DNA of 63,424 nt from a virus (IMGVR_UViG_3300013093_000002:1-63424); one strand, 5' to 3'; positions 2,904 to 52,863 are shown, numbered from the stretch's first letter. The notes: generated by a model not told the origin, from the sequence alone. A program made the numbers and translations.

Positions 2904-4428
2904 AAAGTTAACACCTGAAGATATTATTAAATTAAAGAATGCGCTTCCTCATATGACTGAGGAAATGAAACGCAAGACTGAATTAGAGTTAGCAGAGTAC
3001 GATAAGAAGTTAACACAAAAAGTAGGAAAGGTTAGGTTTTTAGATTTTGTTAAACATGTATATCCTGGTTATAAAGTTGGTGCACACCATAAGCACTTGG
3101 CTCAAATCTTTGAAGACATTGCTGCAGGCAAAAAGAAGAGAGTCATTGTTAACATTGCTCCAAGGCACGGGAAGTCTGAGCTTATATCATATCTTGCTCC
3201 TGCCTGGTTTCTGGGAAAGTACCCAGATAAGAAAATTATTATGGCGTCACATACTGCTGACCTTGCTGTTAACTTTGGACGCCGTGTGCGTAACCTTGTT
3301 GGTAGTGAGTTGTATAAAGATATATTTCCTACAGTAGAGTTACAGGCGGATAGTAAAAGTGCATCACGATGGGGGACTAATTTTAATGGCGAGTACTTTG
3401 CTATCGGTGTGGGGGGCGCTCTTGCTGGGCGCGGCGCCGATCTTTTTATTATCGATGATCCTCATTCAGAACAGGATGCGAAGCTTGGACGTCCGGATGT
3501 TTTTCTACCTGCTTATGAGTGGTTTCAGTCTGGTCCTCTTCAGCGTCTTATGCCTGGTGGAGCGATTATTGTAGTAATGACAAGATGGTCTAAGTTAGAT
3601 TTAACTGGGCAGATTGTTAATCAGATGGTAAAGAATGAAGGATCGGAAGAGTGGGAAGTAGTAGAGTTCCCAGCGATCATAGAAAATAAAGATGGTGAAG
3701 AAAAAAGTTTATGGCCTGAGTTCTGGCCACTAGAAGAATTATTAGCTAAGAAACAAGCACTTGATGTACGTTACTGGAATGCGCAGTATTTACAAAACCC
3801 TACATCAGAAGAAGGTGCACTAATTAAAAGAGAATGGTGGAACATATGGGAGAAAGATATGCCTCCTCAATGCGAGTTCACCATCATGAGTTTAGACGCA
3901 GCACAAGAAGCAAACAATAGAGCGGACTATAACGCGCTCACGACTTGGGGCGTCTTCTTTAATGAAGAGACAAATAACTATAACATTATTCTTTTAAACT
4001 CTATTAAGGAACGGTTGGAGTATCCTGAGTTAAAAGATTTAGTGATACGTGAATATAAAGATTGGGAACCTGATGCATTCATTGTGGAAAAGAAATCTAA
4101 CGGTGCTGTACTTTATCAAGAGATGCGTCGCATGGGTATACCTGTGGGTGAATTTACTCCTGGTAAAGGGCAAGACAAAATATCAAGAGTTAATGCAGTA
4201 TCAGATCTTTTCAGATCAGGAATTGTTTGGATTCCCGATAGACGATGGGCAAAAGAAGTTGTAGAAGAATGTAATGACTTTCCAAGTGGTGCTAATGATG
4301 ACTTGGTTGACTCGACAACACTAGCATTAATGCGGTTTAGACAAGGTGGGTTTATTAGATTACCAAGTGATGAACCTGAAGATATAGCAAGTTATAAAGG
4401 TAATAGGAATAGGTTGTACTTAGTATGA
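2887..4428 (+). CDS. terL: Terminase large subunit
   Basis: Walker A IAPRHGKS, Walker B IIDDP, coupling motif MTRW, RNase H-like nuclease domain with SLDAA and NDDLVDS. Confidence 0.97.
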   Translation: MLMKNRKLTPEDIIKLKNALPHMTEEMKRKTELELAEYDKKLTQKVGKVRFLDFVKHVYPGYKVGAHHKHLAQIFEDIAAGKKKRVIVNIAPRHGKSELISYLAPAWFLGKYPDKKIIMASHTADLAVNFGRRVRNLVGSELYKDIFPTVELQADSKSASRWGTNFNGEYFAIGVGGALAGRGADLFIIDDPHSEQDAKLGRPDVFLPAYEWFQSGPLQRLMPGGAIIVVMTRWSKLDLTGQIVNQMVKNEGSEEWEVVEFPAIIENKDGEEKSLWPEFWPLEELLAKKQALDVRYWNAQYLQNPTSEEGALIKREWWNIWEKDMPPQCEFTIMSLDAAQEANNRADYNALTTWGVFFNEETNNYNIILLNSIKERLEYPELKDLVIREYKDWEPDAFIVEKKSNGAVLYQEMRRMGIPVGEFTPGKGQDKISRVNAVSDLFRSGIVWIPDRRWAKEVVEECNDFPSGANDDLVDSTTLALMRFRQGGFIRLPSDEPEDIASYKGNRNRLYLV

Positions 4429-6281: not shown

Positions 6282-8852
6282 ATGGCAAATATAGATAAAG
6301 GTTTATACCAAGCACCTCAAGGTTTAGAACAATTAGCACAAGGTCAACCTGATATTGAAATCGAGGTTGTAGATCCAGAAGCAGTGCACATCGGCATTGA
6401 CGGAATGGAAATTGATATTGGACGTCAACAAGAAACGTCTGAAGACTTTAATGATAACTTAGCTGAACATCTTGACGAAGGTGTATTAGAAGAATTATCA
6501 GGTGATTTACTCGGTGAATACGAAGCAGATATCTCAGCTCGTAAAGATTGGCTAGATACTTACGTAGATGGACTTGAACTACTTGGTATGAAAGTAGAAG
6601 ATAGAACAGAACCATGGCCAGGTGCATGCAATGTGTACCATCCGTTAATGACTGAGGCATTAGTTAAATTCCAAGCAGAGACTATGATGGAAACGTTTCC
6701 AGCGGCAGGTCCTGTAAAGACAAAGATTGTAGGTAAAGATACCCCAGAAAAAGAAGATGCGGCAGAACGTGTTAAAGAAGATATGAACTATCAGTTAACC
6801 GAGAAGATGCCAGAGTACAGACCTGAACATGAACGTATGTTATGGGGACTAGGGTTAGCAGGTAATGCGTTCAAGAAAATTTATTTTGATCCATCATTGG
6901 ATCGTCAAGCAGCTGTGTTTATTCCAGCAGAAGATATCGTCGTTCCATATGGCGCGTCTAATTTAGAAACAGCAGAACGTGTAACACATAGAATGCGTAA
7001 GACTAAGAATGAGTTACGTAAACTTATGGTTGCTGGGTTCTATCGTGATATTGACTTAGGTGAACCTGCAAACGATATTGATGAAGTTGAGAAAAAGATT
7101 GCAGAGAAGATGGGATTCAATGCGTCTAACGATGACCGATACCAAATCTTAGAGATGCATGTTAACCTAGACTTAGAAGGTTTTGAAGATGTAGACAAAG
7201 ACGGACATCCAACGGGTATTGCACTACCATACGTAGTGACAATTGAAAAAGGTACAGGCGCTATATTATCTATTCGTCGTAACTGGGACCCTGAAGATGA
7301 GATGATGTTAAAACGTCAACACTTCGTCCATTATGGTTACATACCAGGTTTTGGCTTTTATTGTTTTGGTTTAATCCACTTAATCGGAGCATTTGCTAAG
7401 TCAGGTACAATGATACTTCGTCAGTTAGTAGATGCAGGTACACTAAGTAATTTACCTGGTGGTCTCAAGTCACGTGGGCTACGAATTAAAGGCGATGATA
7501 CACCTATTGCTCCAGGTGAGTTTAGGGATGTGGATGTGCCAAGTGGTTCTATCAGAGATAACATCTTACCTCTTCCATACAAAGAACCAAGTCAAGTATT
7601 AAGTATGTTAATGAACCAAATCATTGACGAAGGTAGACGGTTTGCAAGTGCAGCTGATTTACAAGTATCCGATATGTCAGCAAACTCTCCAGTAGGTACA
7701 ACACTAGCAATTCTAGAACGTACTTTAAAAGTGATGAGCGCTGTTCAAGCTCGTATTCACTATGCTATGAAACAAGAGTTTAAATTACTTGCAGGCATTA
7801 TCCGTGATTATACGCCTAGAGAATATAGCTATGATCCTGATGTAGGAGATAGAAAAGCTAAACAATCAGATTACGACTGTGTAGAAGTTATACCTGTATC
7901 TGATCCAAACGCTGCAACAATGTCACAGAAAGTAGTTCAATATCAAGCGGTCATGCAAATGGCACAAGCAAATCCACAAATCTATGATATGGTCGAACTC
8001 AATAAGCAAATGTTAGAAGTGTTGGGCGTTAAGAATATTGGTAAACTTATTCCTGCAGCGGATGAACAACTACCGCACGATCCTGTATCTGAGAACATGG
8101 CTATATTTAATTTAAAACCAGTTAAGGCATTTATATACCAAGACCATCAAGCTCATATTCAAGTGCACCAAGCTGCAATGCAAGATCCTATCATTATGCA
8201 ATCACTTGGTCAAAACCCACAGGCACAAGCAATGATGGCAGCAGCACAAGCTCATATTGCAGAACATATTGGCTTTGAATATAGAAAACAAATTGAACAA
8301 CAGTTAGGTGTAGGACTTCCAGCTCCTGATAAGAAATTATCTCCTGATGAAGAAGTTCAGTTATCTCAACTCATATCTAAAGCGGCTTCACAGTTATTAC
8401 AAAATAACCAAGCACAACAACAGCAACAACAAGCTCAGCAACAAGCTCAAGATCCGTTGATTCAAATGCAACAACAAGAACTTCAAATTAAGCAACAAGA
8501 AGTTCAAATCAAGGCTCAACAAGTTCAAGCTCAAATTCAGATGGAACAACAAAAACTCCAAACTGAAATCCAACATGAACAACAAAAAATTGAGTTAGAG
8601 AAAATGAAATTAACTTCTCAAGAGAAAATTGCTGGTGCTACATTAGGCGCTAAGGTTGTTATGGATAATAAGAAAACTGACACTCAAGTAGCTATGGACC
8701 AAGCTAAGATTAAAACTCAAATGTTACATGAAGGTATGAAGTTTGGTGCTGAGCAAGTACATAAAAATACTGAGCATCAGTTATCTTTAGCACAAATGAA
8801 ACATGAAAAGGAAATCCAAGATAGTATAAATAAACAACAACCTAAGGAGTAA
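6282..8852 (+). CDS. Portal protein (P22-like) with Q-rich coiled-coil C-terminus
   Basis: Size, position after terL, PWPGACNVYHP...KFQAE and GFYCFGL motifs, long C-terminal barrel. Confidence 0.9.
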   Translation: MANIDKGLYQAPQGLEQLAQGQPDIEIEVVDPEAVHIGIDGMEIDIGRQQETSEDFNDNLAEHLDEGVLEELSGDLLGEYEADISARKDWLDTYVDGLELLGMKVEDRTEPWPGACNVYHPLMTEALVKFQAETMMETFPAAGPVKTKIVGKDTPEKEDAAERVKEDMNYQLTEKMPEYRPEHERMLWGLGLAGNAFKKIYFDPSLDRQAAVFIPAEDIVVPYGASNLETAERVTHRMRKTKNELRKLMVAGFYRDIDLGEPANDIDEVEKKIAEKMGFNASNDDRYQILEMHVNLDLEGFEDVDKDGHPTGIALPYVVTIEKGTGAILSIRRNWDPEDEMMLKRQHFVHYGYIPGFGFYCFGLIHLIGAFAKSGTMILRQLVDAGTLSNLPGGLKSRGLRIKGDDTPIAPGEFRDVDVPSGSIRDNILPLPYKEPSQVLSMLMNQIIDEGRRFASAADLQVSDMSANSPVGTTLAILERTLKVMSAVQARIHYAMKQEFKLLAGIIRDYTPREYSYDPDVGDRKAKQSDYDCVEVIPVSDPNAATMSQKVVQYQAVMQMAQANPQIYDMVELNKQMLEVLGVKNIGKLIPAADEQLPHDPVSENMAIFNLKPVKAFIYQDHQAHIQVHQAAMQDPIIMQSLGQNPQAQAMMAAAQAHIAEHIGFEYRKQIEQQLGVGLPAPDKKLSPDEEVQLSQLISKAASQLLQNNQAQQQQQQAQQQAQDPLIQMQQQELQIKQQEVQIKAQQVQAQIQMEQQKLQTEIQHEQQKIELEKMKLTSQEKIAGATLGAKVVMDNKKTDTQVAMDQAKIKTQMLHEGMKFGAEQVHKNTEHQLSLAQMKHEKEIQDSINKQQPKE

Positions 8853-40973: not shown

Positions 40974-41174
40974 TTATTTAACTCGCCAAACTCTTACGCC
41001 TAAGCACCCTTCTTTCATACATACAAAACATTTAACTCTTATCTCTGCACGTTTAGCCCCTGTTTCTACGGCATAAATTAATGGTGCAGTTTTGAGAGTG
41101 GGGACAAAGAAGCTATCCCCGACACTCATACCCTCAAATGGAAACACCCATTCTATTTCATCATGCAGTTTCAG
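40974..41174 (-). CDS. Small conserved phage protein (66 aa), probable CTG start, absent from the ORF track
   Basis: EIEWVFPFEGMSVGDSFFVP...GCLGVRVWRVK; AAGGA 7 nt before CTG; in-frame stop five codons upstream. Confidence 0.75.
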   Translation of the reverse strand: MKLHDEIEWVFPFEGMSVGDSFFVPTLKTAPLIYAVETGAKRAEIRVKCFVCMKEGCLGVRVWRVK

Positions 41175-44037
41175 ATGCGATTCCTTTTAGCGTGTCGCCA
41201 GAGAACTTATCGCTAGGGAATACATAGGCTTCAACATTAACTTGAGCTGTAGCATCTTTCCAACCAGCACCCATCTTCTTACGCTTCTCTATAACTTCAA
41301 TACCTTTTTGTTTCATCTTGTAGACAAACTCTCTTGTGCTTACTTGTCTATCAATTAAGAACTTTCTAAATTCAGGTTTTGATATATAGATCAACTTGCT
41401 TGCGGCTTCTACACGAATAACTAATGATGTTCTAGGTTCCATGCAATGTTTGTTATCTTCGTTAAATGCAAGAATACCTGTTTGATTTAAGTTAATAAAC
41501 TCACCAATGATAGACTCATAATCCACGCTATTAACCTTAACTACATTATCTCTAATATTAATCATTTCATGTACAATGTGGTTATAAACTCTATCTAAGT
41601 CGTAGTTTACAATACCTTCTTTAACTGCTATTTCTCCCGCAGTCATGGCAGCTGCAATTAAATTCTCATAGAACCGATAAGCTGTATCTTCACCAAAGTC
41701 CTTTTTGAATCTAATTATCCAGTTATTCATCATGGCAGATATATCAGCATAGTGGTATCCAAATAATACTTTAATAAAATCAGGACCAGCCCAACCATAG
41801 TTATATCTAAATATATCAAATATCTCTTTACCTAACTGAGCATCTGATTTAAATACTTTAGGTTTTCTAACACTAAACTCAATAAGTCTTGCTACTTCAC
41901 CATTAGGGTCTTTCTTAATAGTAGTTAACTTATCATATAATGAATGGTTAGATGTAAAGATTGCAATCAATGATGCTGACATCTCATGGTCTCTTTCCGC
42001 ATTTACAGATGCCTGCATACGTATTTTAGATTTACCTTGTGATATCTTATGAATTAACTGTGATAAGTCTTTAGGTAATATGTTACCTACTTCATCTAAT
42101 CCGAATGGTAAGTTATGTAATCCAAGATAGCGTCCAGTCATACCGTTAGCCGTAGCTTCTAATACTGATAGGTCTTTAGGATTACCCCATACTGATAGTG
42201 ATGAATATAACGCACCTGTCTTAGCTGCACCTGATTCACCTGTTAAAGATATAGTTACACCTGATGTAGAAGTCTGATCCATAAGTACTGAACCAAAACC
42301 ACATAGTAATGTAAATGCATGTAACTCTAATCCTTCCATATTTAATTTGTTAGCTGACTCTTTCCATGCTTCGTATGTTCCAAGCTGTGTCAAATGTTTT
42401 GCAATACCCTTACATAGAGGCGATGTAGGTGAAGATAATATTCTGCCATCTTTTGTTATCTCTCTATCTCCTACTACAAACGCATCATGGTCAGGTGTCC
42501 AACCCATTTGCATACGCATAATTTCAGCCGATTGTTTTGCTACTAAATACTTACCCCAATTTATAATATAACTCACTAAATGTCCTCCTTGTTTTGTTGT
42601 AGGGTCATAATATATCCCTACGCTTGATATGATTTCTTTAAATTTTTCTGTTGCATAAACATGTTTCATTGGTAATATAAACTCTCTATCAGCATCGTTA
42701 GGAAGTATTGCAACCATTAATAAACATTCACCATCAACCGTACTAAAGATTCGTTTAACAGGCCATAGGTCATATGGCGATACTAAGACTGGTGGTTTTG
42801 CTGGTAATGGGTTGCCATCATCGTCAAACGTTGTTGGTGGTTGGTAGTATATACCGCCATTGACTCCGTATTTATAAGGTTCTAGCTCTTTAGGTAACCC
42901 AGTTAATTTACGTCTAACAGGTGCAAATCCTGATGTGCTAGGTATTATTTCGTTATTAGTTTGATGCTCTACATAAGGTGCTAGTTTAAATACTTTACCT
43001 AAAGCTAACGGGTTTGTTATCTTACCCCTGCTAGGACACTTATCACATATACCAGGATTAACATTATTAAATGTTTCGCATGAATGTGGTTTACCTTGTG
43101 TAGCCTGTGCCTTTTTAATAGTAGCTTCTCTATTGTAGCCAGGGTGTTCATCTGACATCTTATGAATAGCTTCTTCACCATCAATACAATGTTGAGCTAT
43201 AGATAATCCTGAATACCAAATAGGTTCTGATAAAGTTTTAGCATTCTCTAATATATATTTAATCTGACCGCAACCATCAGTTCTACCTTCTTCTAAACTT
43301 TTGAGTGCAAGTATTTCAAACTTAGCTTCAAAGTTATCAGTCTTATACATTGTCTTTTCTTCATCTGTTAAACCCTTTTGAGCTTGTTGAAGTATAGACT
43401 CTAATGATTGATTGACTTCTATTTCACCTAAGAATTGTTTAAACTCATCAAAGTTATATACAGGTAATTCTTCTTGACGGTATACATATGTTCTACTAGG
43501 TGGGTCTGATTTATAATTAAATGTATCAGGTGCTCGTAAGATACGAGCTACGTCCGCAGTAACTACTGGGTCAATCTTTAAGTTATTATCTAAGCAATAG
43601 TTTTTAAACTTCTCAGCATAAGGCTTCCACTCATGTATAGGAATATCTTTATCAAACATCCAGTATGCATGAATCCCATTACCTGAATCAATTACAACAG
43701 GTGGAGGAAGTTGTGCTTTCTTTATAAATACGTCTAATTCAATAAGCGCATCTGATTTAGATTTATATTCTTTTGATTCACCCACATCTAGGTCTAAAAA
43801 GAATGACCTCGCAAATATAGCATCATCTGCTTTACGGCTATGTCCGTTGAATGAACTTAATGCTACAAAGATATTAACCTTGTTCTTTGCTAATTGGTTA
43901 ATAGTATCTTCAATATCGTCAAGTGATTCTACAAACTTATGTCTTGTTCTTTTATCGCCTGTTGGTTCTATTGTAGCAATACAATAAACACCTTGTGATG
44001 GTAGTGCTTTTTTATAAAATTCTTTTATCACATCCAT
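41161..44037 (-). CDS. Primase-helicase (RepB-like primase, Cys cluster, DUF927/Cch-like ATPase)
   Basis: FFLDLD, DSGNGIHAYW, DVARILRAP; C...CDKC; Walker A GESGAAKT and Walker B LDE. Confidence 0.88.
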   Translation of the reverse strand: MDVIKEFYKKALPSQGVYCIATIEPTGDKRTRHKFVESLDDIEDTINQLAKNKVNIFVALSSFNGHSRKADDAIFARSFFLDLDVGESKEYKSKSDALIELDVFIKKAQLPPPVVIDSGNGIHAYWMFDKDIPIHEWKPYAEKFKNYCLDNNLKIDPVVTADVARILRAPDTFNYKSDPPSRTYVYRQEELPVYNFDEFKQFLGEIEVNQSLESILQQAQKGLTDEEKTMYKTDNFEAKFEILALKSLEEGRTDGCGQIKYILENAKTLSEPIWYSGLSIAQHCIDGEEAIHKMSDEHPGYNREATIKKAQATQGKPHSCETFNNVNPGICDKCPSRGKITNPLALGKVFKLAPYVEHQTNNEIIPSTSGFAPVRRKLTGLPKELEPYKYGVNGGIYYQPPTTFDDDGNPLPAKPPVLVSPYDLWPVKRIFSTVDGECLLMVAILPNDADREFILPMKHVYATEKFKEIISSVGIYYDPTTKQGGHLVSYIINWGKYLVAKQSAEIMRMQMGWTPDHDAFVVGDREITKDGRILSSPTSPLCKGIAKHLTQLGTYEAWKESANKLNMEGLELHAFTLLCGFGSVLMDQTSTSGVTISLTGESGAAKTGALYSSLSVWGNPKDLSVLEATANGMTGRYLGLHNLPFGLDEVGNILPKDLSQLIHKISQGKSKIRMQASVNAERDHEMSASLIAIFTSNHSLYDKLTTIKKDPNGEVARLIEFSVRKPKVFKSDAQLGKEIFDIFRYNYGWAGPDFIKVLFGYHYADISAMMNNWIIRFKKDFGEDTAYRFYENLIAAAMTAGEIAVKEGIVNYDLDRVYNHIVHEMINIRDNVVKVNSVDYESIIGEFINLNQTGILAFNEDNKHCMEPRTSLVIRVEAASKLIYISKPEFRKFLIDRQVSTREFVYKMKQKGIEVIEKRKKMGAGWKDATAQVNVEAYVFPSDKFSGDTLKGIASETA

Positions 44038-50085: not shown

Positions 50086-50581
50086 AGTTAGCCATCACTT
50101 CCTTTAATAAGTCTTCATAAGTTAATTCATCTTTATCTTTAGTAAATTCAACACTCATTAAGTATCTAGTCGTTTCAAAATTATACACCGTATGAGGTAC
50201 TTGGGTATTAAATAAATAATAAGTGTTAGGTTTATATTTTAACTCTTCTATTTTAAATACGTATTGATCTGAATCAACTTTAAATAAACAAGCGTTTCTT
50301 TGAGTGGGAGGAGTCAGTAACATATTAATACCGACACCGCGTCTAGTATCTGTGTGCCAATCATAGCAAACGTATGGGTCTAGCTTGAGTATGCCGGCTA
50401 CAAAACTATAACGATGAGATAACCATACAAAGAATTCATCTTGAAATATAATCTCTGGCGGAATACGCTTAGCATCAAAATTATAATAGGGTGTCCAGTC
50501 TGATGGACTAAAAGCAAAGTCTTGTAAGTCCTTGTATATACTAGACTTTTTACTTATTTCATAATAGGGTTTCATTAGCAT
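50078..50581 (-). CDS. Double-stranded beta-helix (2OG-Fe(II)/cupin-like) oxygenase
   Basis: DWHTD...INM...LFNTQVPHTV.N...R. Confidence 0.7.
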   Translation of the reverse strand: MLMKPYYEISKKSSIYKDLQDFAFSPSDWTPYYNFDAKRIPPEIIFQDEFFVWLSHRYSFVAGILKLDPYVCYDWHTDTRRGVGINMLLTPPTQRNACLFKVDSDQYVFKIEELKYKPNTYYLFNTQVPHTVYNFETTRYLMSVEFTKDKDELTYEDLLKEVMANYE

Positions 50582-52443
50582 TCACCATAACTTGCACCGT
50601 GATGTGTTTCACATGCCACAGGTAGTCCTTTAGCCCAGTCAGGTGGTGTTGACATTACATCTGTAATATATCTTACTGCATTATCAACATCATCATCTTT
50701 AGCCACACAAACTACTGCATCATGCACTGTTAATACTGGTTTATATTTCTCATTGATACTTATCATCTGTTCACCTACAATAATTCTAGCTAATGCCTGC
50801 ACGACGTTCTCGACGACAGACCCACCCCATATAGATGTAAACCCATTTCTAGCACGATATACAAACTTACTCTTAGACTCTGATGTATCCCATGTAAGAC
50901 CTGGATAATAAATATATAAGCCATTGGGTAGCTTAATTCCTTTTTCTGTGACTTGTAATACATTATGTTTACCGATGTAATACGGTTCTTTACCTTGTTT
51001 CCATGAAGCTAAGTCTTGTAAAGCATCGTCACACTCACGCCACAATTCAATAACTTTATCATTAACTTCTCTATAAACTCTGACAAGCCTTTGACATTCA
51101 TCATCTGATAAGTTAGCGTTAGGTGGTTGAGTCTTTAGTGTATGTTGTAGCTTAGCCCACCCTGTGCCATAGCCTAGTCCTAATGTGCAAGTCTTACCTA
51201 CGAACCTTTCAACTGTATCTTTCTTAGTTATGGGTCGTTCATAAACTTTACTTGCAAACTCAGAATAAACATCTCGACCATCTTTATACCATTGGACTAT
51301 GTCATCTTGTCCTGCAAGCCATACTAAGACACGAGCTTCAATCTGCGAAGAGTCACAGTTAATAATCTTATGACCCATAGGTGGAACAATAGCATTCTTT
51401 AATGCTTTCTTTTTCTTATCTCGTGCAGGTAAGTTTTGGAAGTTAACCTTATCTAAGCCTGACCATCTGCCTGTATGTGCGCCGTAATACTTTAATGGAA
51501 TAGGTAGCTTACCCTTATTGCGTTTACCTATATCTATAAATCTCTCTATCCTTGACTCTTCAAGTGTAGACTTAGTGCCTAGTCTTACTCGACATAGTTC
51601 TTGTATAAATACATCTTCACTCTCAGATAATGCAATAAATCCTACATCATTCTTAGCTAAAGCATAAGTATCTTTGCCTGTAGTCGGACTTACTTTCATA
51701 GGTGGCTCTATGCCTAGCTCTATAAGTAACTCAGCAAATTGTTTATTAGATGCTAACTTAGCACGGACTTCTTCTGTAGTTTTACAGTCTAACCGTATCA
51801 TCAGTCCTGTAAGTAATTCAGCTTTTAAGTTCTTAACTTCTTCTAATCGTTCTACAAGTAAAGCATCGTCTACTTCAAGTGTAGGCTCGGTATACATGCG
51901 AAGAGTTATATCAATAAGTTTAACTTCATTCTCATTAAACTGTGGTGCTAAGACTTGGAATAGTTTATAGGTTAAGTCAACGTCATTTTTACAATAACCA
52001 CCGTATCTATCTAACTCAGCAGGCGTAAAGTTTTCTAGTCGCTTACCTTTAGCATCTATAACTTCTGTGCCTTTTGTGCCTAAATTATATCTTTCTACAA
52101 GTGTAGCTAACGAACCGCCCGCATTAGTGCCGTGTATAGCCCTAGCCATGCAGAGAGTATCGAAATACATAGAAGGAACAATCCCAAAACTAAAAGATAA
52201 AATACCACCGTCAAACAACATGTTATGACAGAGTAAGGCAGAGTTAGGAATGTCATAAGAGTCGAGTATAGTTTTAATTTCTTGATGCGTTCCAGTATGC
52301 CATTTAGTTTCTTCATCATTTACTTTAACTCCTACTCCAATTACTTGAAATTGTGGTGACCTTATATACTCTTCAGTAGTAAGGCTTGATAAGGTAAAAC
52401 CTACATCATAGTAAGTTTCAAAGTCTAAGGTTATGAGTTTCAT
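50575..52443 (-). CDS. DNA polymerase, family A, with 3'-5' exonuclease
   Basis: LDFET, HNMLFD, YCKND exo motifs; HTGRWS, DSSQIEAR (motif A), RFVGKTCTLGLGYG (motif B), TVHDA (motif C). Confidence 0.96.
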   Translation of the reverse strand: MKLITLDFETYYDVGFTLSSLTTEEYIRSPQFQVIGVGVKVNDEETKWHTGTHQEIKTILDSYDIPNSALLCHNMLFDGGILSFSFGIVPSMYFDTLCMARAIHGTNAGGSLATLVERYNLGTKGTEVIDAKGKRLENFTPAELDRYGGYCKNDVDLTYKLFQVLAPQFNENEVKLIDITLRMYTEPTLEVDDALLVERLEEVKNLKAELLTGLMIRLDCKTTEEVRAKLASNKQFAELLIELGIEPPMKVSPTTGKDTYALAKNDVGFIALSESEDVFIQELCRVRLGTKSTLEESRIERFIDIGKRNKGKLPIPLKYYGAHTGRWSGLDKVNFQNLPARDKKKKALKNAIVPPMGHKIINCDSSQIEARVLVWLAGQDDIVQWYKDGRDVYSEFASKVYERPITKKDTVERFVGKTCTLGLGYGTGWAKLQHTLKTQPPNANLSDDECQRLVRVYREVNDKVIELWRECDDALQDLASWKQGKEPYYIGKHNVLQVTEKGIKLPNGLYIYYPGLTWDTSESKSKFVYRARNGFTSIWGGSVVENVVQALARIIVGEQMISINEKYKPVLTVHDAVVCVAKDDDVDNAVRYITDVMSTPPDWAKGLPVACETHHGASYGEC

Positions 52444-52467
52444 TAGTTGCTTTCTAATTTTAATTTG

Positions 52468-52639
52468 CGCTATCTTATGCAAACGACAGATAGCGGGTGC
52501 CGTATTTTGTCTTTAACTATGGTTATCAAGCACAGTTAACCTACTTGCATTATAGGACGTTGGTGGGCTACTCACGGTTTATATAAATGCAAAAATACCG
52601 TCTAAATAATTTAACATACATATAAAAGTGCTTTCGCCC
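52468..52639 (-). ncRNA. Candidate structured RNA leader of the DNA polymerase gene
   Basis: GGGC-GAA..AGUA-GCCC loop-E-like stem (52565-52639), followed by three hairpins with pseudoknot and loop-loop complementarity (52468-52558). Confidence 0.55.
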
Positions 52640-52659
52640 TTTGCGTTTACTGCAAATTC

Positions 52660-52863
52660 TTATTTGTCTTTTGCGTGTCGTGCAAATTCATCACGACATA
52701 TTACCGAACACCAACGACGAGTATCCTTAACAGGTTCATCACACCATATACATTTACCTGTTGTGTTAACAGGTGTTTTAGCTTTATTATGGGCATTGGT
52801 GACTGCCGTATCAATCATTTGTTGTAGATATTCGTTAGCGACATCTACTTCGTCGTTCATCAT
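52660..52863 (-). CDS. TraR/DksA-like C4 zinc-finger protein
   Basis: N-terminal DEVDVA (DxxDxA) helix plus CIWC...CSVIC. Confidence 0.7.
   Translation of the reverse strand: MMNDEVDVANEYLQQMIDTAVTNAHNKAKTPVNTTGKCIWCDEPVKDTRRWCSVICRDEFARHAKDK

Follow-up and report, generated by a model that had tools for sequence, protein, structure and literature searches.

To our knowledge, few structured regulatory RNAs specific to phage DNA-replication genes are known, the classic cases being the operators of T4 genes 32 and 43. The gene 32 operator is described as a pseudoknot located upstream of an unstructured A/U-rich ribosome-binding site (RBS), and that of gene 43, the DNA polymerase gene, as a hairpin (PMC10690425, PMC3014915). 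The present work deals with IMGVR_UViG_3300013093_000002, a complete phage genome of 63,424 bp with direct terminal repeats that was analysed over its full length (hereafter the window), and with the 216-nt gap (52444-52659, minus strand) between an upstream 67-aa open reading frame (ORF) and the family-A DNA polymerase gene. This gap holds two RNA modules, here named D1 and D2. As in the T4 operators, a structured element is located in the 5′ leader of a replication gene, and D2 followed by an A/U-rich RBS resembles the arrangement of gene 32. Unlike the T4 operators, to which no sequence or model similarity was found, D2 has an additional loop–loop helix and an optional hairpin, and the modules precede two different genes, so strict autoregulation is unlikely. 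To the few known cases the locus adds a covariation-supported pseudoknot with loop–loop fold and an S-turn module, limited to the polymerase and primase leaders of uncultured lake phages.

D2 also resembles the SAM-II, preQ1-II, c-di-GMP-II and ZTP riboswitches in size (70-100 nt), in its H-type pseudoknot core with covarying peripheral stems, in its location in the 5′ untranslated region and in its occasional tandems; it differs from them in having no Rfam match and no expression platform that could be found, and in not being seen in bacterial genomes. Compact pseudoknots, optional stems and a patchy and tandem occurrence in phage DNA are shared with the hammerhead, twister, pistol, hatchet and HDV-like ribozymes, whereas the helix order of D2 differs, in our own comparison, from the pistol and HDV topologies, and its strict gene link and fixed orientation would be unusual for small ribozymes.

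A catalogue of 8,495 candidate structured RNAs drawn, as was the present genome, from IMG/VR reports leaders consistently located upstream of particular phage genes, and its main text contains 0 mentions each of polymerase, primase and helicase (PMC10690425). No description of the D1/D2 motif was found in the literature searched, including passages of PMC10690425 and PMC9004378; the supplementary tables of PMC10690425 may list it. Covariance model searches (cmscan) with Rfam 15 gave no match within the gap when the gap and its flanks were searched at E ≤ 10, 0 matches over the whole window at the gathering score, and no match over the modules in eight related loci carrying D1, D2 or a third module, D3 (E ≤ 5 or E ≤ 1). 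No model of the known ribozyme classes in Rfam (hammerhead, twister, twister-sister, pistol, hatchet, HDV-like, hairpin) was matched. D1 and D2 are a new pair of RNA motifs that match no Rfam family and have no assigned function, in agreement with an earlier note on this DNA, made from the sequence alone, which had proposed a two-domain structured RNA of no known family in the polymerase leader.

Folds of D2 and D1

The gap alone is not thermodynamically significant (minimum free energy -45.3 kcal/mol, z -0.85, 41 of 200 shuffles folding at least as well), and the support for structure comes from related sequences and not from the window alone. All the sequence elements listed in the earlier note are present on the minus strand at the places given there, and the helices of both modules are backed by covariation on the mRNA strand, the only one on which the G.U pairs of D1 and D2 work. 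The parts of D2 in the window are as follows.

52466-52560, minus strand: D2 as a whole (hairpin 1, variable hairpin 2, H-type pseudoknot and loop–loop helix)
52540..52556, minus strand: hairpin 1, CCUAU/GUAGG, 5 bp with loop AAUGCAA, paired in 100% of the alignment cells
52545..52550, minus strand: hairpin 1 loop segment AUGCAA, partner of UUGCAU in the loop–loop helix
52513..52539, minus strand: hairpin 2, variable, with 5 of 5 outer pairs covarying
52499..52503, minus strand: 5′ strand of pseudoknot stem S1, ACGGC, pairing with GUCGU
52488..52494, minus strand: 5′ strand of pseudoknot stem S2, GCUAUCU, pairing with AGAUAGC
52483..52487, minus strand: 3′ strand of S1, GUCGU, pairing with ACGGC
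52477..52482, minus strand: pseudoknot loop 3, UUGCAU, forming 6 bp with the hairpin 1 loop
52469..52475, minus strand: 3′ strand of S2, AGAUAGC, pairing with GCUAUCU

Only hairpin 1, S2 and the outer portion of hairpin 2 went into the D2 covariance model; S1 and the loop–loop helix were left out and were then counted as pseudoknots in the resulting alignment A7 (35 matches, 34 distinct), which was fitted to the nested helices and favours them. Standard pairs occupied 98.7% of 933 cells, as compared with 88.2% in column shuffles (0 of 500 reached the observed value), and only 27.7-47.2% of the cells paired when the partners were slid by 1-3 columns. Compensatory changes on both sides were found in 14 of the 28 pairs among the 34 distinct sequences: 4/5 in hairpin 1, 5/5 in hairpin 2, 2/5 in S1, 2/7 in S2 and 1/6 in the loop–loop helix. 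The covariation among homologous leaders that the earlier note had named as a check was thus observed for D2, as it was for D1 (see below).

The H-type pseudoknot suggested in that note was found across the homologues, with S1 and S2 paired in 97.1% and 97.9% of the cells, respectively. S2 comprises 6-7 bp, an eighth pair that had been claimed (C-G in the window) being C.A in most relatives; its versions are GCUAUCU/AGAUAGC, AUUACCU/AGGUAGU, ACUACCU/AGGUAGU and ACUGUCU/AGAUGGU. Among 50 distinct units, the terminal C-G of S1 is changed to U-A in four (L158, L171, L203 and one more; related contigs are designated by L numbers), and a G.U pair of S1 alternates with G-C (39/11). The complementarity of UUGCAU and AUGCAA pointed out earlier corresponds to a loop–loop helix with compensatory change, the first pair being A-U in 44, G-C in 5 and G.U in 1 of these units. 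Because the first S1 pair (A-U) and the last S2 pair are each unpaired in 5 of the 34 aligned sequences, the core stems were taken as 4 and 6 bp.

Where two D2 copies stand in direct tandem, the S2 of the upstream unit (AUUACCU/AGGUAGU or ACUGUCU/AGAUGGU) is unlike that of the downstream one, and so is its loop pair, GUGCAA/UUGCAC. Such differences would keep neighbouring copies from mispairing and are expected if the pairings form in one RNA; D2 arrays separated by D1 showed no such difference in the upstream unit.

Almost all canonical units form hairpin 2, its sequences and lengths being unrelated among them; in L158, L193 and L204 a linker of 9-16 nt takes its place. Of 40 distinct versions, 34 have one of the words CUCC, CCUC or UCCU in the segment from hairpin 1 to S1 (shuffle mean 10.9, maximum 20 in 1000 shuffles). 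This CUCC-like word, which is anti-Shine-Dalgarno-like, sits in the hairpin 2 loop or in the replacement linker, being retained when the hairpin is lost; the window's own D2 is without it. An anti-Shine-Dalgarno role for the word was not accepted as demonstrated, since pairing to the RBS was no better than in shuffles. The 3′ ends of D2 are ACC, ACU, AUU, AAG or GCA. A metagenome contig (L223:2240-2330, plus strand) contains a D2 remnant in which the pseudoknot is intact and hairpins 1 and 2 are deleted as compared with L203, leaving no loop–loop partner.

The D2 core is under strong constraint: over 25 contigs its identity to the window was 94%, as compared with 70% for the adjacent polymerase DNA and 49% for hairpin 2.

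The covariance model of D1 (R2) gave 66 confident matches and the marginal match L043 (27.4 bits, E 0.0068) in 70 related sources. Its parts in the window are the following.

52561..52643, minus strand: D1 as a whole, matched by R2 with 82.4 bits
52636..52639, minus strand: 5′ strand of helix P1, GGGC, pairing with 52565-52568
52628..52635, minus strand: GAAAGCAC, the GAAA side of an S-turn-like internal loop and the GC of helix P2
52576..52627, minus strand: AU-rich interior, GAYGGUAUUUUUGC ..., kept as sequence, with no conserved fold
52569..52575, minus strand: GUGAGUA, the GY of P2 and the GAGUA side of the internal loop
52561..52568, minus strand: 3′ strand of P1, GCCC (52565-52568), and the ACCA tail

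Compensatory changes were observed in 2 of the 6 D1 pairs (5 cells), with 3 unpaired cells, among 46 distinct sequences. P1 occurs as GGGC/GCCC, GAGC/GCUC, GAGU/ACUC, GGGU/ACCC and GGGU/GCCC: its second pair changes from G-C to A-U in 2 copies, and its fourth is C-G, U-A (3 copies), U.G (1) or a C.A mismatch (3). In the 2-bp P2, G-C and G-U alternate (34/12). The CAC/GUG helix proposed in the earlier note held for the G-C and C-G pairs, which are the GC/GY of P2, and failed for the remaining pair, most relatives having CAC/GCG with an A.C mismatch. The GAAAGCAC segment is invariant at positions not fixed by the search pattern, and among the true D1 copies listed just 2 are without the ACCA tail.

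The consensus of the sarcin-ricin or loop E motif is 5′-AGUA-3′ opposite 5′-GAA-3′. At the sequence level, AGUA opposite GAA between Watson–Crick pairs is present in the D1 GAAA/GAGUA loop of the window and is invariant in the 46 distinct copies, in support of the loop E match noticed earlier. The sheared-pair side would lie against the G-C helix, in the orientation of the ribosomal loop. The resemblance is to a local three-dimensional motif that denotes neither family nor function, and D1, unlike that motif, is a module of 60-83 nt with an AU-rich insert.

The AU-rich arm UUUAUAU/AUAUAAA of the earlier note was not borne out. RNAalifold gave no consensus pairs in the D1 interior, the folds of which differ among variants (mean z -0.61, 2 of 44 below -2), and a short D1 variant with an interior of 29-30 nt is without the arm. 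The interior is conserved as sequence, AAAUUCGUGAUGGUAUUUUUGC... Outside D1, the window contains no exact copy of the D1 core word GGTATTTTTGC; 39 sites were found within 2 mismatches, as compared with 26.1 expected, and 1 of 100 shuffles reached 39. A translated short ORF had been named as an explanation that would refute the RNA, and no conserved one was found: a leader peptide in D1 was rejected, since the mini-ORFs differ in frame or stop or are absent (L009 and short variants), not being conserved in frame or presence, and GAUGG/GACGG variation removes the shared ATG. A promoter inside D1 was not supported either, with no sigma-70-like site on the gene strand and a Bacteroidota-type motif not in excess genome-wide (5 vs 4.0 expected); a promoter of a type particular to the host may still be present.

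Gene context, distribution and modularity

The features flanking the two modules are given below.

50575..52443, minus strand: family-A DNA polymerase gene, 622 aa, start ATG at 52443
52444..52468, minus strand: A/U-rich spacer with the weak ribosome-binding region AUUAGAAAGCAACUA, preceding the polymerase ATG
52660..52863, minus strand: upstream 67-aa ORF with C-x2-C ... C-x3-C, zinc-ribbon-like, its stop ending 20 nt ahead of D1

The 67-aa ORF gave no Pfam match. Extension of the polymerase ORF to a TTG at 52482, which would overlap D2, was not supported, since the homologues all begin at ATG (MKLITLDFET...). Neither a sigma-70-like promoter nor an intrinsic terminator was found on the gene strand within the gap.

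Every copy of D1 and D2 lies on the strand of the next gene. The strict D2 pattern was found in 40 viral contigs (48 matches including the window), variant units being obtained from relaxed pattern scans, and the next long ORF after a strict match has the length of the polymerase (~620 aa) or of a DUF927 primase-helicase (~948 aa), or encodes an HNH protein. The sole exception, L027 (GC-rich, 27.9 bits, part of the seed), was treated as a probable chance match. A D2 core pattern gave 33 matches in 30 metagenome contigs: 21 before the polymerase, 6 before the primase, 3 before the HNH ORF and 3 as upstream units of arrays. The gene-proximal D2 ends 24-43 nt ahead of the ATG. Primase-type D2 occurs without D1 and is closed by a covarying helix (CUAAAUAA/UUAUUUAG; AGUAAAGUU/AACUUUAUU), the 5′ strand of which overlaps the upstream stop codon.

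Two D1 patterns were found in 64 and 67 viral contigs. The context of D1 was taken from 70 rows (the 64-contig scan plus the window): 8 lie directly before the primase, 2 before other ORFs and 4 at contig ends, and the remainder precede the polymerase, D2-polymerase arrays or HNH-containing arrays. From the upstream stop to the start of the D1 base helix there are ~7 nt, or 20 nt in the window, and a further 5-33 nt separate the end of this helix from the ATG that follows. In 5 of 5 complete or near-complete genomes D2 is present at exactly one site; one D1 is present in 3 of the 5 and D1 is absent from the other 2. L040 has the gene order of the window, with D2 before the primase and the polymerase without any leader.

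In a protein-guided scan with the polymerase, the leaders of 16 viral contigs were compared. L016 equals the window save for a few single-base differences. L001-L006, with polymerases 98-100% identical, keep D1 and lack D2, the ACCA being followed by 13 nt and the ATG. Contigs at 74-76% polymerase identity carry D1 with one D2 (L009, L015) or with tandem D2 (L007, L008, L010, L013), and L011 and L012 (65%) have neither module. D1 without D2 and D2 without D1 both occur, as do the arrays D1-D2-D2, D1-D2-D1 and D1-D2-D1-D2. Both domains of the earlier note are real, and what did not stand is their union in one RNA, each module being found without the other. Because AUUAGAAAGCA of the spacer directly adjoins the D1 tail in the D1-only relatives, while D2 adjoins it in the window, D2 looks, on comparison of these leaders, like a clean insertion at a CACCAA-type joint after D1. 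Such module swapping bears on the movement of regulatory RNA between phage genomes.

The carriers are a family of uncultured ~60-kb freshwater phages. A search with the strict D2 pattern through 596 Gb of bacterial and archaeal genomes returned 9 matches, all in unrelated GC-rich genomes; these were rejected, being about the number estimated by chance for the pattern's information content, and model R1 did not confirm them.

A third non-coding module of ~150 nt, D3, with the core CTCTTACACTGTGCGAGGGTGTA, was observed in 6 viral contigs. It folds into several hairpins, ends in CGCACCAAAU as do D1 and D2, and gave no Rfam match in L021 and L193. D1, D2 and D3 all end in a stem with an (A)CCA-like (G)CAC(C/U)AA. 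The D3 copies located are the following.

L021:9330-9500, plus strand: D3 between the D2 array and the HNH ORF
L193 ~7700-7810, minus strand: D3 between D1 and a second D2
L235 ~3500-3700, minus strand: D3 before an unrelated ORF

L031, L033 and L049 have the same array as L021 and also match the D3 core. The HNH-type ORF of L021 (9555-10040, plus strand; 160 aa, homing-endonuclease-like) lies between a D1-D2-D1-D2 array and the polymerase gene, which was found to follow it when this locus was read through; it is also present in L031, L033, L049, L221, L231 and L233.

Candidate functions of the modules

About as much can be said for as against the reading we favour, in which the leader holds two independent, portable RNA modules acting in cis on the mRNA of the following replication gene. 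From their position, control of polymerase expression by the modules is plausible. The comparisons establish the folds and their strand, the modularity, the exclusive gene context, the single site in each genome and the strong constraint on the D2 core; we infer that the modules regulate at all, that translation is the level concerned, and what kind of partner is involved. D2 forms a compact three-helix core, made up of an H-type pseudoknot (4-5 bp and 6-7 bp) and a 6-bp helix of loop 3 with the hairpin 1 loop, and its dispensable variable hairpin usually displays the CUCC-like word. This fold, 24-43 nt upstream of the start codon and followed by an unstructured A/U-rich ribosome-binding region, may be an operator- or aptamer-like platform, and D2, when occupied, would govern the access of the 30S subunit to the polymerase or primase message or the stability of that message. 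The S-turn hairpin of D1, between the upstream stop and the next start, could gate or couple translation. The most likely occupant of D2 would be a factor acting in trans that the phages or their host have in common, a metabolite being the second choice. A shared partner is preferred to the encoded enzyme because the same modules precede both polymerase and primase genes. The autoregulation by the polymerase offered in the earlier note is disfavoured on the same grounds, since other phages that share this gene order have the modules in front of the DUF927 primase-helicase gene. A metabolite is placed below a protein or another trans factor, as the motif is limited to a single group of phages and the search of bacterial genomes did not yield it.

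Several points weigh against this cis-acting reading. That the leader is transcribed as part of the polymerase mRNA is an assumption based on gene order. No expression platform was found, there being no terminator after D2 and no excess of RBS pairing (hairpin 2 or linker against the ribosome-binding region: mean z -0.33, 13 of 50 below -1, not above shuffles), and no candidate trans factor was identified. D2 is dispensable, being absent from six contigs with near-identical polymerases. Among 80 polymerase-homologue loci (60-77% identity) D2 was present in 4 and D1 in 8, the carriers all being at ≥68% identity and others at 72-74% having neither. The conserved interior of D1 has no explanation as part of a leader module. 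The invariance of D2 columns is partly a matter of ascertainment, the strict pattern having fixed GCAAGT, ACGGCAC and GYCGWTTGCAY. The patchy presence of a near-identical core also fits a horizontally spreading or accessory element.

A broader proposal is put forward only tentatively, as one we would sooner doubt than accept: D2 would be the founding member of a phage-only RNA class, either a new riboswitch or RNA sensor through which a cellular signal would set the synthesis of the replisome, or else a self-cleaving ribozyme of a new type, and D1 and D3 would be further parts of a portable toolkit shuffled between replication-gene leaders by recombination at the CACCAA joint.

It is unlikely that D2, by itself or together with D1, acts as a self-cleaving ribozyme or as a specific RNase processing signal, the long replication-operon transcript being cut just ahead of the polymerase or primase cistron so that a structured 5′ end remains. 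The compact, doubly pseudoknotted core with sequence-conserved helices and an optional peripheral hairpin would suit such an element, as would its patchy presence (absent in near-identical genomes), its tandem copies and its confinement to phages, the 9 bacterial matches being about chance; D1, moreover, ends in a stem plus ACCA, a property of RNase P substrates. ARAGORN found 0 tRNA or tmRNA genes in the window; the stem with ACCA at the end of D1 is tRNA-like, the ends of D2 being different. Against cleavage stand the absence of any Rfam ribozyme match, a helix order which in our own comparison is unlike the HDV and pistol topologies, and the exclusive, sense-oriented tie to two related genes, which small ribozymes are not known to have. 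Attempts to fit D2 to the consensus structures of HDV-like, pistol and hairpin ribozymes and of the k-turn were rejected, the strands coming in a different order.

A sub-case of the cis-acting reading, in which D2 is the aptamer of a new metabolite riboswitch (for example for a nucleotide-related signal) setting the translation of the replication genes, is unlikely too. The pseudoknotted, strongly conserved core with helices covarying outside it, and the constant location of a conserved folded element in the 5′ leaders of genes with related functions, are what a riboswitch would show, and tandem arrangements are known for some riboswitch classes. The lack of an expression platform speaks against it, as do the dispensability of D2 in near-identical phages and the failure to find the strict pattern in bacterial genomes, the phage riboswitches we know of being shared with hosts.

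Quite unlikely is the explanation that the modules are accessory or selfish RNA cassettes riding in well-expressed intergenic sites, whether as a trans decoy or small RNA (for example against host defence) or spread by recombination at the CACCAA joint. The contrast between a D2 core 94% identical and adjacent polymerase DNA 70% identical favours it, together with the use by D2 of two distinct intergenic positions among genomes that share a gene order, its presence or absence among near-identical genomes, the (G)CAC(C/U)AA that ends every module, D3 included, and the homing-type HNH ORF that adjoins some arrays. A free mover, however, would be expected elsewhere too, and D2 has one site in each of the 5 complete genomes, always before polymerase or primase; the gene-proximal unit is tightly spaced from the start codon (24-43 nt), and D2 was found to have neither a terminator nor a promoter belonging to it.

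Action of the conserved sequences as DNA, as a replication origin or single-strand initiation signal or, for D1, as a promoter in an AT-rich block, is very unlikely: the single site per genome beside replication genes, the AT-rich D1 interior conserved as sequence and not fold between GC clamps, and GCGAAAGC, which we take to be a known, very stable DNA mini-hairpin, are outweighed by modules that are not universal (D1 absent in 2 of the 5 complete genomes, D2 absent in near-identical genomes), by G.U pairs that would be A.C on the other strand (S1 in 39 of 50 units, D1 P2 in 12 of 46), by an orientation that always follows the gene, by pseudoknot and loop–loop covariation hard to motivate for duplex DNA, by the lack of a sigma-70-like site on the gene strand of the gap and of an excess of the Bacteroidota-type motif in the genome (5 vs 4.0 expected), and by the lack of a second exact copy of GGTATTTTTGC in the window.

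D1 and D2 are worth experimental follow-up. The natural variants form a ready genetic series, in which D2 is absent, single, in tandem with orthogonal pairings or lacking hairpin 2, and D1 is long or short. If D2 binds a ligand, it would represent a riboswitch class not described before, and if it self-cleaves, a new class of ribozyme; binding of a protein would indicate an as yet undescribed circuit controlling replisome stoichiometry.

The phage genome

The window sequence was found in DNA metagenomes of lakes and other fresh waters, with 20 data sets from 19 studies containing it and 2 of the rows perhaps being its source, and none of the 22 runs listed was an RNA run carrying it. No DNA similarity of the window to cultured phages was found, and the polymerase is at most ~33% identical to proteins of cultured phages, the closest being those of Pseudomonas phage KPP25 and Rhizobium phages.

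A 5S rRNA-like cmscan match at 52709-52800 (minus strand), within the 67-aa ORF, scored 19.9 bits (gathering score 38, E 0.33) and was taken as chance. A ribosomal protein S21 encoded by the phage was considered as a possible partner, and none was found in the genome. The rightward block (2300-41000, plus strand) consists of large, probably structural genes. The leftward block (41161-62000, minus strand) contains the replication and early genes, including those for the family-A polymerase, a 2OG-Fe(II) oxygenase, a PD-(D/E)XK nuclease, an SNF2 helicase and the DUF927 primase-helicase, as well as a DUF2201 metallopeptidase/VWA protein and an AAA ATPase. The ORF at 41161-44037 is the homologue of the DUF927 primase-helicase (~948 aa) that lies downstream of D2 elsewhere.

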